A stretch of 64,000 nucleotides of DNA from Bacteroidales bacterium UBA4814. GTDB taxonomy: Bacteria; Bacteroidota; Bacteroidia; Bacteroidales; UBA7960. The notes below the pieces were generated by a model. It was not told where the DNA came from. It worked only from the letters and a program-made list of their open reading frames with translations, and made no database searches. The DNA lies in assembly GCA_002402465.1 (NCBI GenBank), contig DHFW01000002.1, forward strand, positions 39,027 through 103,026, given 5' to 3'. Below are positions 43-45,320 of this stretch, one piece after another. A program made the position numbers and the translations under genes. The number at the start of each line of letters is the position of its first letter. Positions within the stretch are counted from its first letter, which is position 1.

Positions 43-1242
43 ATGAGCAAAGTACTGATTATTGGAGCTGGTGGGGTAGGCAACGTGGTAACCCGCAAAT
101 GTGCTGCCGTGCCGGAGGTGTTTACCGACATTATGCTGGCCAGCCGCACCCTTGAGAAATGCGACCAGATAGCCCGCGACATTGGCGACGACCGGGTGAA
201 GACCGCGCAAGTGGATGCCGATAACGTGCCCGAGCTGGTGGAACTGATCAACAAGTTTAAGCCCGATATGGTTATCAACGTGGCTTTGCCATACCAGGAC
301 CTCACCATCATGGAGGCCTGCCTCGAAACCAAGACCCATTACCTGGACACCGCCAACTATGAACCCAAAGATGTGGCCAAGTTTGAATACAGCTGGCAGT
401 GGGCTTACCACGACCGGTTTAAAGATGCCGGACTGCTGGCCATTTTGGGTTGTGGCTTCGATCCCGGTGTTACCGGCGTTTTCACCGCCTATGCCGCCAA
501 GCATTACTTCGACGAGATTCACTACCTCGATATTGTGGATTGCAACGCCGGCGACCACGGAAAGGCCTTTGCCACCAACTTCAATCCCGAAATAAACATA
601 CGCGAGATTACCCAAAACGGCCGCTATTGGGAAAACGGAAAGTGGGTGGAAACCAAACCCCTGGAAATCAACAAGCCCATCGAATATCCCGAAATAGGAC
701 CACGCGATTCCTACCTGCTTTATCATGAAGAGCTGGAGTCGTTGGTGAGGCACTTCCCCACCATTAAAAGGGCACGCTTCTGGATGACTTTTGGCAAGCA
801 ATATATCAACTACCTCAACGTGCTGCAAGAGGTGGGTATGACCAGCATTAAGCCGGTCAATTTCAAGGGCATGGATATTGTGCCCCTCGAATTTTTGAAA
901 GCCGTGCTTCCTGAACCCTCTTCGCTGGGCGAGGGTTACAAGGGTCAGACCTCCATCGGTTGCCAGATTCGTGGCATAAAAGATGGCAAAGAACGCACTT
1001 ATTATGTTTGGAATAATACCGAGCATGCTGCTGCTTACCGCGATGTGAAAGCACAAGGCATCAGTTATACCACCGGTGTTCCGGCTATGATCGGCGCCAT
1101 GATGGGCCTCACCGGAAAATGGACCGGCAAAGGGGTATTCAACGTGGAACAGTTCGATCCTGATCCGTTTATGGAAGCCCTGCCGAAGTACGGACTGCCC
1201 TGGCACGAGCAAATTGATGAGCCACTACCCGTGGAAAAATAA
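43..1242 (+). CDS. carboxynorspermidine synthase/dehydrogenase (saccharopine dehydrogenase family)
   Basis: 399-aa ORF with ATG at 43. N-terminal Rossmann motif IIGAGGVGNVV and saccharopine-dehydrogenase-like sequence. Paired with carboxynorspermidine decarboxylase downstream, as in the alternative (nor)spermidine pathway. Confidence 0.8.
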   Translation: MSKVLIIGAGGVGNVVTRKCAAVPEVFTDIMLASRTLEKCDQIARDIGDDRVKTAQVDADNVPELVELINKFKPDMVINVALPYQDLTIMEACLETKTHYLDTANYEPKDVAKFEYSWQWAYHDRFKDAGLLAILGCGFDPGVTGVFTAYAAKHYFDEIHYLDIVDCNAGDHGKAFATNFNPEINIREITQNGRYWENGKWVETKPLEINKPIEYPEIGPRDSYLLYHEELESLVRHFPTIKRARFWMTFGKQYINYLNVLQEVGMTSIKPVNFKGMDIVPLEFLKAVLPEPSSLGEGYKGQTSIGCQIRGIKDGKERTYYVWNNTEHAAAYRDVKAQGISYTTGVPAMIGAMMGLTGKWTGKGVFNVEQFDPDPFMEALPKYGLPWHEQIDEPLPVEK

Positions 1243-1260
1243 GGGTTAGGGATTAGGGGT
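1239..1260. repeat. left arm of the imperfect inverted repeat bracketing the four-helix-bundle cassette
   Basis: ATAAGGGTTAGGGATTAGGGGT overlaps the stop codon of the upstream gene. It can pair with 1704-1726 (21 pairs including 2 G-U, one bulge, one mismatch; hand-aligned). Confidence 0.6.
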
Positions 1261-1323
1261 AAGTGATTAATAATTCATTAGCCCCTTGATTTGTTGTTTC
1301 TTGGTTTTCAAATTTTTGAAAAA

Positions 1324-1690
1324 ATGAAAGCTGGAGTGACAAAAACAAAAAGCCTTGAATTTGCAATCCGTTGTGTGGGTTTGTATCGCTTTCTCATTGA
1401 AAAAAAATGAATTTGTCATTTCAAAACAAATCCTGAGATCAGGTACTTCGATTGGTGCATTGGTGAGAGAAGCTGAATATGCAGAGAGTGGTCTGGATTT
1501 TATCCATAAATTGTCGATTGCACAAAAAGAATGCAACGAAACATTGTATTGGATCGAATTGTTGAATAAAACTGATTTTATTGATAAAAACTTGTTCGAC
1601 AGCCTTAACGATGATGCTGTGGAATTAATGCAACTGCTAACAGCAATTATTGTCAAAAGAAAACAAAACTTAAAGAAAAACAATCCTTAA
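1324..1690 (+). pseudogene. four-helix-bundle protein (23S rRNA intervening-sequence protein family), interrupted by a frameshift in an A8 run
   Basis: ATG 1324 gives MKAGVTKTKSLEFAIRCVGLYRFLIEKK, then TGA at 1408. The family-typical remainder NEFVISKQILRSGTSIGALVREAEYAESGLDFIHKLSIAQKECNETLYWIELL... continues in the +1 frame (track ORF 1355..1690, TTG start). The junction is the homopolymer A(8) at 1400-1407; one A fewer restores a single ORF. Confidence 0.7.
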
Positions 1691-1703
1691 AAAATTAAAA
1701 ATA

Positions 1704-1726
1704 ATCCTTAAACCCTAAACCCTTAT
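1704..1726. repeat. right arm of the imperfect inverted repeat bracketing the four-helix-bundle cassette
   Basis: ATCCTTAAACCCTAAACCCTTAT is complementary to 1239-1260 and ends 12 nt before the nspC ATG. AATCCTTAA also occurs at 1682-1690 and 1703-1711. Confidence 0.6.
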
Positions 1727-1737
1727 CACTAAAGAAA

Positions 1738-2889
1738 ATGAGCGTTGACTTTAACAAGGTTCCTTCTCCCTGTTTCGTGCTTGAAGAAACGCTGCTGCGT
1801 ATCAACCTGGAGATTCTGAAGCTGGTGCAGGAAGAGGCCGGCGTGGAGATTATTTGTGCCCTGAAGGGCTATTCGATGTGGGGTACTTTTCCGCTGCTGG
1901 CCAAATATCTGGAAGGAGCTACGGCCAGCTCGCTCAACGAGGCCCGCCTGATTTACGAGGAGATGGGCGTGAAGGCGCATACCTACTGCCCGGTGTTCCT
2001 GGAGGAGGAGTTCGACGAATTATTGTATTACAGCAGCCACATTTCGTTTAACTCCCTGAGCCAGTTCGAGCGCTTCAAGGACCGGGTGAAGAACCACCAT
2101 GAGCCTGTTTCCATGGGCCTGCGCATCAACCCGGAGTATTCGGAGGTGGAAACCGAGCTTTACAACCCCGCCATGCCCGGCTCACGCTTGGGCATCACTG
2201 CCGACCAGCTTGGCGACACGCTGCCCAAAGGCATTGATGGGCTGCACTTTCATGTGCTTTGCGAAAACGACAGCTTTGTGCTGGAACGCACCCTCGAAAA
2301 AGTGGAAGAGAAGTTCGGCCACCTGATTCGGCAGGCCAAATGGTTCAATATGGGCGGCGGTCACCATATCACCCGTAAGGATTATGATGTGAAACACCTG
2401 GTTTGCCTGCTAACCGAGTTTAAGGAGCGCTATCCCAACCTGCAAACAGTGATTTTGGAGCCCGGTGAAGCCATAGGCTGGCAAACAGGCTACCTGGTTT
2501 CCACCGTGCAGGATGTCATCGAAAACAAGGGCCTCCATATTGCCATGCTTGATGTGAGCTTCTCGGCCCACATGCCCGACTGCCTCGAAATGCCTTACAA
2601 GCCCAGGGTGCTGGGTGCTACCGATGCCATTGAGGGTAAACCCGTGTACCGCCTCGGCGGAGGAACCTGTCTGGCTGGTGATTACATGGGAATGGGAGAC
2701 TACAGCTTCGGCAATGACCTGAAAGTGGGCGACAAGGTGGTGTTTGACGACATGATACACTATACCATGGTCAAATCCACTTTCTTCAACGGGGTGAAGC
2801 ACCCATCCATTGGAATTTGGAAAGCCAACGGCGAATTTGTATTGCTGCGGCAGTTTGGATACGAAGACTACAAGGGAAAATTGTCGTAA
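1738..2889 (+). CDS. nspC: carboxynorspermidine decarboxylase
   Basis: 383-aa ORF. N-terminus PSPCFVLEETLLRINLEIL and the HFHVLCEN / MGGGHH blocks are typical of NspC (fold-type III PLP decarboxylase). Adjacent to the CANSDH-like gene. Confidence 0.88.
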   Translation: MSVDFNKVPSPCFVLEETLLRINLEILKLVQEEAGVEIICALKGYSMWGTFPLLAKYLEGATASSLNEARLIYEEMGVKAHTYCPVFLEEEFDELLYYSSHISFNSLSQFERFKDRVKNHHEPVSMGLRINPEYSEVETELYNPAMPGSRLGITADQLGDTLPKGIDGLHFHVLCENDSFVLERTLEKVEEKFGHLIRQAKWFNMGGGHHITRKDYDVKHLVCLLTEFKERYPNLQTVILEPGEAIGWQTGYLVSTVQDVIENKGLHIAMLDVSFSAHMPDCLEMPYKPRVLGATDAIEGKPVYRLGGGTCLAGDYMGMGDYSFGNDLKVGDKVVFDDMIHYTMVKSTFFNGVKHPSIGIWKANGEFVLLRQFGYEDYKGKLS

Positions 2890-26744: not shown

Positions 26745-28001
26745 TTACCCAAGCATTCTCAGGTAGTTAACTTCTTTTTCGGTTAGGAAACGCCACTTTC
26801 CGCGGGGCAGGTCTTTTTTTGTCAGGCCTGCAAAAACCACGCGATCGAGTTTTGTTACCTTGTAGCCAAACTGTTCGAAGAGGCGCCTTACCACGCGGTT
26901 CTGACCCGAGTGCAATTCAATGCCTACTTCTTTCTTTGTTTCGGCCTTATCAATATATGATACGGCATCTGGCACCACAAGGTTATCGTCAATCTTCACT
27001 CCATTGGCAATTTGTTCCAGATCGGCTTTGGTAACGGCCTGGTCGAGATGCACGTGGTAAAGTTTTCTTACGCCATGACGCGGGTGGGTGAGTTTTTTGG
27101 CTAGTTCGCCATCGTTGGTAAGCAGCAGCAGTCCGGTAGTGTTGCGGTCGAGCCTTCCCACGGGATACACGCGCTCGCGGCCAGCATTTCTGATCAATTC
27201 CAGCACGGTTTTACGGTGCTGTGGGTCGTCGGAAGTGGTTATATAATCTTTTGGCTTGTTGAGCAGGATATATACTTTCTTTTCGTTCACCAGTCGCTGG
27301 GTGCCATACATCACTACGTCGCCGGGCATTACTTTTACGCCCATCTCGGTCACGATTTTGCCGTTTACGGTAATGGCGCCGTTTTTTATAAGCATGTCGG
27401 CTTCGCGCCTGGAGCATACGCCGGCATTGGCAATGTATTTATTCAGCCTGCTGCTGTCGTCGAGTATTTTGCGTGGCTCTCTGCTGCTTCGGCCGGGTTT
27501 GCCTTTGGCATAAGGGCGTTTGGAAGCCGGTCGATCTTTCGAGTAGCTGCGTTCGCTACGTTCTGGTCGGTCACTTGAATAGAGCCTGTCAGATGAGTAG
27601 CTGCGTTCGCCCCTGCCGCTGCGATGGGCAGAGGAAGGTCTGTCAGGAGATTGCCTGCGATTGCCAGTCTGTGGGCGGTCCTTTGAAAAAGGTTTTTCCC
27701 TGGAGAATTTGCGATCGCCGGTTTCTGGTCTGTCTTTCGAAAAGGGTCTTTCCCTGGAAAATTTACGGTCGCCAGCACTTGGGCGATCTTTCGAAAAGGG
27801 TTTGTCTTTGGAGAATTTACGGTCGCCCGATTCGGGTCGATCTTTCGAAAAAGGGCGGTCTTTTTTGTAAGGTCGGCCTTCGGTGCGGGGCCTGTCGGAA
27901 CGGGCCTCACGGCCGGTGCTTTTTCCGGTGGTTTTTGAGCCAGGGCGGCCCGGACGTGCGTTACGCCGGTCTCCACCGGGCCTGGCAGATGTGTTTCTCA
28001 T
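26745..28001 (-). CDS. RluB-like pseudouridine synthase with an N-terminal basic low-complexity extension
   Basis: S4 domain LNKYIANAGVCSRREADMLIKNGAITVNG and catalytic block VYPVGRLDRNTTGLLLLTNDG. About 190 N-terminal residues are R/S/D/K/P-rich. Confidence 0.85.
   Translation of the reverse strand: MRNTSARPGGDRRNARPGRPGSKTTGKSTGREARSDRPRTEGRPYKKDRPFSKDRPESGDRKFSKDKPFSKDRPSAGDRKFSRERPFSKDRPETGDRKFSREKPFSKDRPQTGNRRQSPDRPSSAHRSGRGERSYSSDRLYSSDRPERSERSYSKDRPASKRPYAKGKPGRSSREPRKILDDSSRLNKYIANAGVCSRREADMLIKNGAITVNGKIVTEMGVKVMPGDVVMYGTQRLVNEKKVYILLNKPKDYITTSDDPQHRKTVLELIRNAGRERVYPVGRLDRNTTGLLLLTNDGELAKKLTHPRHGVRKLYHVHLDQAVTKADLEQIANGVKIDDNLVVPDAVSYIDKAETKKEVGIELHSGQNRVVRRLFEQFGYKVTKLDRVVFAGLTKKDLPRGKWRFLTEKEVNYLRMLG
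27679..27870. repeat. 54-nt coding tandem repeat (about 3.5 copies)
   Basis: Units begin at 27679, 27733, 27787 and 27841 (partial). On the gene strand they encode PFSKDRPxxGDRKFS(K/R)(D/E)(K/R). The periodicity also shows in the plus-strand shadow ORF (SFEKGLSLENLRSPxxGR x3). Confidence 0.85.
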
Positions 28002-45129: not shown

Positions 45130-45159
45130 TTTTTACCACTTTTTACCACTTTTTACCAC
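45130..45159 (-). promoter_or_regulatory. candidate MraZ operator: three perfect 10-bp direct repeats
   Basis: Plus strand TTTTTACCAC x3, which is GTGGTAAAAA x3 on the gene strand (AAAGTGG boxes with TAA spacers). Located 40-70 nt upstream of the mraZ ATG. A TATATTTA -7-like box sits at 45116-45123. Confidence 0.7.
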
Positions 45160-45320
45160 ATTGTTAATAACTTTTTGCCTCATAAAGCCGCTGATTTAAA
45201 GAATAACTCTGTAAACCACTGATAACCAGGATAAAATGCATTTAATGCATTAATGTGAAAAACACATGTTTTTGAAATACAGATTCTTAACTATTGCAGT
45301 ATTTTTTATTGAATTATCCT

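Follow-up and report, generated by a model that had tools for sequence, protein, structure and literature searches.

The closest described relative of the element reported here is the intervening sequence (IVS) in helix 45 of the 23S rRNA of Coxiella burnetii, a 428-nt element with a 28-bp terminal stem. Three to four tandem GACAGAT units are located just before the start of its S23p (PF05635) gene and their number varies between strains; RNase III cuts have been mapped in the stem, and the S23p open reading frame (ORF) is decaying (PMC4990558). PF05635 has been recognised as Avd-like, Avd having a homologous, pentameric four-helix-bundle (4HB) fold (PMC10053308). Another line of work concerns heptanucleotide repeats. 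Rehm et al. described the heptamers GGGAATC (Xanthomonas) and GGGGATT (Nostoc) as abundant, unexplained and G-quadruplex-forming, with 70 convergent heptamer pairs in X. campestris and no mention of the 4HB gene (PMC4692102), and MacGregor described TAACTGA heptamers of Beggiatoa and Bacteroidetes beside start and stop codons (PMC4679880). Here we report on a 4HB cassette of about 0.5 kb in a 64-kb stretch of the genome of Bacteroidales bacterium UBA4814 (contig DHFW01000002.1, positions 39,027 to 103,026; this whole stretch is called the window). The cassette lies between the gene of carboxynorspermidine synthase/dehydrogenase (CANSDH) and nspC, the carboxynorspermidine decarboxylase gene, i.e. 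it is an IVS-type cassette in an mRNA operon. An earlier reading of the letters alone (the sequence-only reading) had described it as an inverted-repeat-bounded module of the 23S IVS type. This description is supported as essentially right, and the window copy is a decaying member of its class.

The anatomy that we propose for the class consists of about 4-5 tandem heptamers, a promoterless 4HB gene (PF05635/TIGR02436) and about 4-5 reverse-complement heptamers. In the RNA the two arrays would pair into a stem that serves as a substrate of RNase III, and the window cassette would be a vertically inherited, partly decayed copy of this class. We hold this combined account, anatomy and RNA stem together, with moderate confidence.

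The orthologous CANSDH-nspC junctions of relatives were found by scanning genome contigs with nspC; this comparison had been named beforehand as a check on the idea that the insert is a discrete module and not an ordinary spacer. The cassette is present in the clade of the window, whereas two close relatives (L002 and L004) are empty: they have no spacer, and the CANSDH stop overlaps the nspC start (GAAAAATGAG). In L008 the spacer is 20 nt long. The four closest homologues of the 4HB protein in a database of 5.8 billion sequences (P0001, P0002, P0004 and P0005) all map to this junction. The carriers of GGGNTTA-type arms, i.e. the window, L081, L086, L089 and L001, form one clade on the CANSDH tree. 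L081 has about 15 left units with 54 paired nt (-70.7 kcal/mol), and in L001 the left arm is truncated and the 4HB ORF is decayed by multiple stops. The arms of the relatives differ in sequence and length yet remain complementary. The sister clade has entirely different GAGAGTA/TCTCT arms in L005 (3062-3420), where the 4HB ORF was inactivated independently by an in-frame TAG (…VISR*IMRSG…); in L003 (3249-3500) the arms are homologous to those of L005, the 4HB ORF is deleted and an inverted heptamer hairpin is left. L006 (2189-2312) also has a heptamer hairpin without an ORF at the junction. The empty L002 and L004 nest within the cassette-bearing sister clade (84% bootstrap, on a tree from a nucleotide alignment with a protein-type distance correction, the branch lengths of which are approximate), which implies clean loss or allele replacement. 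These junctions demonstrate that the cassette entered as one discrete DNA unit, in the sense orientation, at the point where the stop and the start of two translationally coupled genes overlap.

Both ends of the window cassette are tandem heptamer arrays (Table 1), the units of the right arm being of the reverse-complement type of those of the left arm. The inverted repeat of the sequence-only reading is real, and its supposed telomere-like G3/C3 units are better described as degenerate tandem heptamer arrays in inverted orientation. The sense strand of the left arm contains no C, that of the right arm no G. Tandem Repeats Finder gives a period-14 match at 1243-1269 on the left and TAAACCC in 2.1 copies at 1709-1723 on the right, and the inverted repeats reported by the repeat finder pair 1239-1254 with 1711-1726, 1243-1258 with 1706-1721 and 1248-1269 with 1702-1723. 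A duplication of AATCCTTAA had been pointed out as well; it is found at 1676-1696 and 1697-1717 (direct repeat D1), with a spacing of 21 nt, i.e. three heptamer units. The arm pairing, when derived again from the sequence, has the 21 pairs counted earlier by hand, with 2 G-U pairs, one A-A mismatch and one bulged A.

The duplex of the two arms has a predicted energy of -29.4 kcal/mol, as compared to -14.3 +/- 3.1 for shuffled right arms (0/500 reach the observed value). Folding of 1225-1745 favours the long-range stem, which is present in both the minimum-energy and the centroid structure (z = -2.4; 0/100 shuffles as good). The inverted repeats at the ends give a predicted stem around the element, the loop of which holds a sense-oriented ORF, as in an IVS. 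Since the arms are repeats, there are at least two pairing registers, 7 nt apart. The cassette can be closed by its arms as had been suggested, while the register suggested for it is the alternative and not the dominant one of Table 1. In the ensemble computed in the context of 1150-1800 the dominant register has about 14 bp with pairing probabilities mostly of 0.77-0.85 (about 0.55 at 1246-1247 and 0.44 at 1255), and the outermost pairs of the alternative register (1239-1241 with 1724-1726) reach about 0.12-0.15. The third G-tract is taken by a local hairpin, GGGG 1256-1259 pairing with CCCC 1282-1285, and the probability that 1256-1260 pair with the right arm is about 0.

For a comparison with the class, 104 further 4HB loci were gathered from metagenomes and viral contigs by protein patterns alone; 96 had usable flanks, and clustering at 90% identity left 90 non-redundant loci. 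A period-7 array stands directly beside the ORF on at least one side in 75 of these 90 loci (83%). Each locus has its own heptamer unit, and the tandem 7-mers abut the ORF on both sides in inverted orientation. At lag 7, self-identity in the best window reaches 0.70 upstream and 0.65 downstream; the flanks of control genes give 0.42 and 0.43, and other lags about 0.40. Values of at least 0.64 are seen in 70% of the upstream and 58% of the downstream cassette flanks and in 2% of the control segments. In 34 of the 44 loci with two arrays, the upstream unit agrees with the reverse-complemented downstream unit at ≥6 of the 7 positions, as compared to 12% of mismatched partners. The same tendency is seen in the duplex energies of the flanks: the median is -57.9 for true partners, mismatched partners give -41.5 (p = 1e-10) and the own partner reversed gives -40.0 (p = 4e-14). 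Array length has a median of about 4.5 units (interquartile range 4-6), and upstream and downstream unit numbers are correlated (r = 0.78). Some 10 nt separate the end of the upstream array from the ATG, and the downstream array starts with the stop codon. The upstream units are poor in C on the sense strand (A 42%, T 36%, G 19%, C 4%). By these features the class can be defined as having a period-7 array that precedes the ATG by no more than ~25 nt, a reverse-complement array from the stop codon onward and an upstream arm poor in C; the window cassette falls in it. Its arrays are degenerate and fall below the automatic array score; clear, long arrays are found at the same site in relatives such as L081. 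Further 4HB copies with such arms, another expectation of the sequence-only reading, are thus a property of the class, with heptamers that differ in sequence; in the 64-kb window no further 4HB copies or heptamer arrays were found.

The plainest alternative is an ordinary AT-rich spacer that holds a normal small gene and, by chance, an inverted repeat. The window stem is indeed short and imperfect, and the window has no further copies; however, none of the shuffled arms matches the observed duplex, the architecture recurs in 83% of 90 independent loci as opposed to 2% of control segments, and the relatives have empty sites with overlapping stop and start. The chance explanation is contradicted by all three and we regard it as highly improbable.

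Other properties of the heptamers were considered as well. A design that places stops in all three frames was rejected, as a sense stop occurs in 87% of the units against an expected 82% (P = 0.19). ATG is not enriched either (24% observed, 23% expected). G-quadruplex formation was rejected as a class-wide denominator, because GG occurs in only 15% of the upstream units; a G-quadruplex role is possible for the GGG-type arms of the window clade.

Some loci of the collection deserve a separate mention. An IMG/VR contig (L182, 2380-3760) carries two 4HB cassettes about 550 nt apart, with the units CGTAATT and CTATAAC; the upstream arm of the second contains C and is an exception to the C-poor rule. 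L151 (1-960) has three tandem 4HB copies; two are truncated and both of these end in a CAATGTA/CAATTAA heptamer array, which suggests recombination or template switching at the arrays. In L156 a DUF805b RNA motif (Rfam RF02914, 40.6 bits, 1338-1371) lies downstream of the 4HB cassette, among three long AATTTTC arrays.

The array-ORF-array unit behaves as one piece of DNA. Between L106 and L115 (84% protein identity) and between L137 and L144 (80%) the homology spans the whole unit and stops at the outer borders of the arrays, the flanks outside being unrelated. Heptamer similarity declines as protein identity falls. Period-7 arrays without an ORF are also found, at 12.4 per 100 kb around cassettes and 3.3 per 100 kb in nspC control loci, and those near cassettes often share the unit of the cassette nearby. 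ORF-less inverted heptamer hairpins are also present at L175 4482-4537 and L010 4698-4769, and in L010 and several other control loci arrays lie directly downstream of nspC. It seems that Bacteroidales commonly have heptamer hairpins at the ends of genes.

The placement of the cassettes is conspicuous. Both neighbours are co-oriented with the 4HB ORF in 58 loci and opposed to it in 5 (p = 2e-12), and the gaps to the neighbours are about 30-40 nt, i.e. the arrays fill the intergenic space. Among the 96 loci, 3 have ORF-poor flanks and none lies in rRNA. The recurrent hosts are pairs of partner genes: CANSDH/nspC, RimB-like/RimK and accB/accC. In Xanthomonas, Dyella and Lysobacter (L194-L204, ~1924-2440) a 4HB gene of the XCC0516 type separates accB from accC, with GGGAATC ... 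GATTCCC arrays on either side. The cassette between the RimB-like gene and rimK (L205-L212, 2467-2895) has gaps of 33 and 31 nt and heptamers of the GGTTAAT/CCATTAA type, and its context is identical in every sample read. The pair cmr3/cmr2 of Pleurocapsa is another 4HB host (PMC3936711).

We propose that the cassette is transcribed only by read-through from the operon, in line with the 58 vs 5 orientation, the narrow gaps, the 4% C of the upstream units and the results of the promoter and terminator scan, which predicted no sigma-70 promoter and no intrinsic terminator in the window insert, Bacteroidota promoters being outside the coverage of the tool. In the read-through transcript the arms would zip into a stem. 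The three-letter alphabet of each arm would prevent self-folding; such a composition fits a role in single-strand pairing because neither arm folds stably on itself. The stem would loop out the 4HB ORF and bring the CANSDH stop beside the nspC start, and would be a substrate of RNase III, as in the 23S rRNA IVSs that contain 4HB genes. Cleavage would then free the 4HB mRNA while the flanking cistrons stay functional, so that the insertion would be nearly harmless to the host.

The 4HB gene of the window is not intact. The sequence-only reading had assigned the sole ORF of the insert to the family first described in 23S IVSs. This family assignment is confirmed by PF05635 and TIGR02436, and the ORF itself turned out to be interrupted by a frameshift in an A8 run that had been missed. 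The ATG at 1324 reads 28 codons up to a TGA at 1408-1410, and the remainder continues in the next frame up to a TAA at 1688-1690, its last codons falling within the right heptamer array. Removal of one A from the run gives a full-length 4HB protein of 121 aa, which matches PF05635 with E = 3.5e-24 and 85.5 bits (cutoff 33.8; profile positions 7-105 of 106) and TIGR02436 with 93 bits over its full length (cutoff 24). The profile of the family (A1) finds the PDB entry 2RLD, of a Bacteroides thetaiotaomicron gene product, with E = 2.9e-54 over positions 1-116 and, weakly, 2GSC (XCC0516; E = 0.011), with no other PDB chain at E <= 10. Four independent samples (ERZ27315071, SRR30850184, SRR32030934 and SRR1313285) carry the identical frameshift, so it is a real, fixed mutation; L001 is also frameshifted at the A8 run. 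As judged from codon substitutions, the 4HB protein is under strong purifying selection, with dN/dS values of 0.04-0.08 over saturated dS. These include the repaired window copy, for which the comparison with L081 gives dN/dS 0.05 at dS = 1.1, meaning that the slip happened very recently or that slippage on the A-run gets round it. A8 runs are a classic motif of transcriptional or ribosomal slippage. The reading frame may thus be partly rescued; unless it is, the window copy is a remnant of a PF05635/TIGR02436 gene.

Selection on the protein also speaks for a quite different explanation, namely a module domesticated by the host, in which the 4HB protein is a useful small protein, e.g. an RNA-binding regulator, and the heptamer hairpin is an intercistronic element that is tuned by slippage and sets the expression ratio of the partner genes. 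The low dN/dS values would be expected in this case, and so would the long conservation of accB-4HB-accC in Xanthomonas, Dyella and Lysobacter and the recurrence between functional partners, cmr3/cmr2 included (PMC3936711). Strains of Coxiella (PMC4990558) and the relatives of the window differ in their number of units, as phase-variable simple sequence repeats do. On the other hand, the host operons are functionally unrelated, this type of cassette is also found within rRNA (PMC4990558), and at the CANSDH-nspC junction the ORF was repeatedly lost or broken without any change of the operon (broken or deleted in the window, L001, L005 and L003, absent from L002 and L004). We consider domestication quite improbable.

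Several observations weigh against the RNA-stem account that we prefer. RNase III excision has been demonstrated for rRNA IVSs, and for the window locus cleavage is proposed by analogy with them. The window stem has only about 14 bp in its favoured register and 21 imperfect pairs in the other; it is shorter than the ~28-35 bp typical of the class and would be marginal for RNase III. The period of 7 is not explained by RNase III processing. That strong purifying selection acts on an ORF which is single-copy and vertically inherited suggests a selectable activity of the protein, and a purely selfish, neutral element does not predict this. Nor was recent transposition caught, as five proteins (P0131, P0164, P0180, P0176 and P0086), of which P0131, P0164 and P0086 occur on many contigs, were each found in a single genomic context. 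Finally, the mismatches carry no signal of the RNA strand: the 41 loci with alignable arms have 28 G:T and 32 A:C mismatches, and by our own arithmetic on these counts a two-fold preference for G-U looks excluded at roughly p = 0.001. The equal frequency of the two mismatches points to homogenisation at the DNA level; the complementarity of the arms is probably kept by slippage and copying between the arms and not by pair-by-pair selection on the RNA.

The last point leads to another explanation, in which the cassette is a mobile or recombining element of DNA: the inverted arrays would be sites of a transposase or recombinase, or single-stranded DNA hairpins or cruciforms, the cassette would be moved or copied by some factor, perhaps the 4HB pentamer, and pairing in RNA would be a by-product. 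Arm complementarity that looks Watson-Crick, without G-U bias, agrees with this. So do homology that ends exactly at the arrays, the co-variation of unit numbers on the two sides, the ORF-less hairpins that often share the unit of a nearby cassette, and the coexistence of filled and empty sites with empty alleles nested in a cassette-bearing clade. There may even be a flanking direct repeat, since the window cassette has GAAAAAT(AA) on the left (1233-1242) and GAAAAT(GA) on the right (1730-1740), the empty site being GAAAAATGA. From the sequence this could be a target-site duplication of 6-9 bp or merely the A-rich context of a start codon, which confounds the comparison; the repeat is degenerate in L081, L086 and L001, so a target-site duplication is unconvincing in the relatives. 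Moreover, no transposase, recombinase or reverse transcriptase is encoded within ~1.7 kb upstream and ~3 kb downstream (as read from the list of genes and Pfam domains in L082/L083), and neither a transposase in the element nor near-identical multiple copies were found, the 4HB ORF being the sole ORF and present once in the 64-kb window. Every exact protein sequence that was checked occurs at a single locus, and an element of double-stranded DNA gives no reason for the 58:5 sense bias or for upstream arms without C. On balance we find a purely DNA-level element unlikely, though less so than domestication, and continue to prefer the RNA-stem account.

The features of the locus are collected in Table 1. 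The insert 1243-1737 is AT-rich, as had been claimed, the GC content being 0.29-0.37 over 1201-1800 and 0.50-0.58 in the flanks. The best NCBIfam match of CANSDH is carboxynorspermidine synthase with 430 bits, which is under the strict cutoff of the model (800), whereas NspC passes the equivalog cutoff of TIGR01047 (521 bits, cutoff 409). The CANSDH stop, TAA 1240-1242, makes up the first three bases of the left array, and the last unit of the right array is 7 nt from the nspC ATG. The neighbourhood, read from the gene list just mentioned, consists of Mg-chelatase-like, GGACT, CANSDH, nspC, LapA_dom and DUF819 genes. There is no Rfam rRNA match at the cassette, which sits between two protein-coding genes and not in an rRNA helix, and the Rfam scan of the insert gave no RNA family, only chance-level miRNA matches (E ~0.5). 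Searches with PHROGs and PADLOC gave no matches. Elsewhere in the window there is a 54-nt tandem repeat at 27658-27854 (3.6 copies, 76% matches), which probably encodes a protein repeat of 18 residues and is unrelated to the cassette, and a perfect (TTTTTACCAC)x3 tandem repeat at 45130-45183 within an array of 22-nt period.

Table 1. Features of the cassette locus in the window
Feature	Position	Strand	Description or basis
CANSDH (carboxynorspermidine synthase/dehydrogenase), upstream flanking gene	43..1242	+	ORF list; Pfam Sacchrp_dh_NADP and Sacchrp_dh_C
Left arm, tandem heptamer array of 5 degenerate units	1240..1274	+	TAAGGGT TAGGGAT TAGGGGT AAGTGAT TAATAAT; parsing, Tandem Repeats Finder, inverted-repeat pairs I1-I3
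Predicted long-range stem closing the cassette	1242..1716	+	Dominant register 1242-1255 with 1702-1716; alternative 1239-1260 with 1704-1726, one heptamer off
Predicted local hairpin AGGGGU...AGCCCCU	1255..1286	+	Minimum-energy and centroid structures
4HB gene, N-terminal fragment, frame 1	1324..1410	+	MKAGVTKTKSLEFAIRCVGLYRFLIEKK*; ORF list; tblastn residues 1-28 to 1324-1407
A8 run with +1 frameshift	1400..1407	+	Intact relatives have GAGAAGAAT or GAAAAGAAC
4HB gene, C-terminal part, frame 2	1400..1690	+	...NEFVISKQILRSGTSIGALVREAEYAES...KKNNP; tblastn residues 17-121 to 1382-1687
Right arm, tandem heptamer array of 7 units	1682..1730	+	AATCCTT AAAAAAT TAAAAAT AATCCTT AAACCCT AAACCCT TATCACT
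nspC (carboxynorspermidine decarboxylase), downstream flanking gene	1738..2889	+	TIGR01047, ORF list

A broader proposal can be made, which we put forward tentatively, as a possibility that is rather less likely to hold than to fail. According to this, genes of the 4HB family (PF05635, Avd-like) would combine with inverted heptanucleotide arrays to make up a widespread two-part genetic element, which we did not find recognised as a class. The ORF-bearing cassettes would be the 'autonomous' form; ORF-less hairpins and arrays, i.e. GGGAATC of Xanthomonas, the cyanobacterial short tandemly repeated repetitive (STRR) sequences and the intergenic heptamers of Bacteroidales, would be derivatives as in RAYT/REPIN, the cognate array, of about five units, would be recognised or maintained by the pentamer, and the 23S rRNA IVSs would be cassettes that landed in rRNA. 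Binding of the array by a 4HB pentamer is an attractive hypothesis, given an array length of about 5 units and the homology to Avd. The likeness to REP/RAYT (REPIN) systems lies in a single-copy gene flanked by inverted short repeats that also occur elsewhere as ORF-less inverted pairs, and in vertical inheritance with long persistence. The 4HB protein differs from RAYT in that it is a helical bundle of 120 aa without a nuclease or transposase fold, and its repeats are tandem 7-mers, not REP palindromes. That the 4HB protein disperses the ORF-less arrays is pure conjecture. If true, the two-part element would provide a function for a 30-year-old orphan family and an origin for the ORF-containing IVSs and for the bacterial excess of 7-mers.

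Irrespective of this proposal, a gene-plus-repeat cassette is widespread, and it was not found described as a class; beyond the Coxiella observation, a full-text search, with most subscription journals outside its coverage, found no statement of a general association between 4HB genes and heptamers. So far, rRNA IVSs that contain an ORF have been regarded as curiosities of a few pathogens, their origin being unknown. The window and about 100 relatives show that the IVS-type cassette lives mainly between co-transcribed protein genes, with sharply defined ends and in a strict sense orientation. The class links three separate matters: an orphan protein family (PF05635, Avd-like), where the IVSs come from, and the excess of heptanucleotides in bacteria, which has had no explanation. 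Xanthomonas is a tractable subject for experiments, with rnc genetics, a crystal structure of the protein and the defined accB-4HB-accC locus. There are also consequences for annotation, since operons are split by the cassettes, pseudogenes are called and assemblies break at the repeats.

As compared to the Avd genes of diversity-generating retroelements (DGRs), the cassette likewise has a small gene between repeated sequences, but the repeats flanking the 4HB gene are inverted 7-mer arrays and not direct repeats of ~130 nt. No reverse transcriptase and no template/variable repeat pair were found near the window cassette (~1.7 kb upstream, ~3 kb downstream), and the repeat finder, run on 1100-1900, gave no long direct repeat of such a kind, the direct repeats of this region all being short (10-21 nt) and in two copies. 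Profile A1, matching only 2RLD strongly and 2GSC weakly, detected no Avd chain by sequence.

With the known heptanucleotide repeats (Xanthomonas, Nostoc, the cyanobacterial STRR and TAACTGA) the cassettes share intergenic tandem 7-mers near start and stop codons, often in convergent, i.e. inverted, pairs and variable in length between strains. Those repeats have been treated as stand-alone simple sequence repeats with G-quadruplex or translational roles, in papers that make no reference to the 4HB family, and mostly have no ORF between the arrays. GGGAATC of Xanthomonas, reported as an unexplained repeat, flanks the 4HB gene XCC0516.

The likeness is greatest to the 23S rRNA IVSs. The IVSs of Coxiella, and also of Leptospira, have a PF05635 protein and a sense ORF in the loop of a stem formed by terminal inverted repeats, and with Coxiella the cassette further shares the heptamers, an element size of ~0.43-0.5 kb and an ORF that decays while the RNA element persists; the 28-bp stem of Coxiella is equal to 4 heptamer units. 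Unlike the 23S IVSs, the window cassette has a protein-coding operon and not an rRNA as its host transcript, and its stem is shorter and more degenerate than that of the rRNA IVSs. Still, the anatomy is the same as in Coxiella, which makes '23S-IVS-type' an apt label for the cassette.

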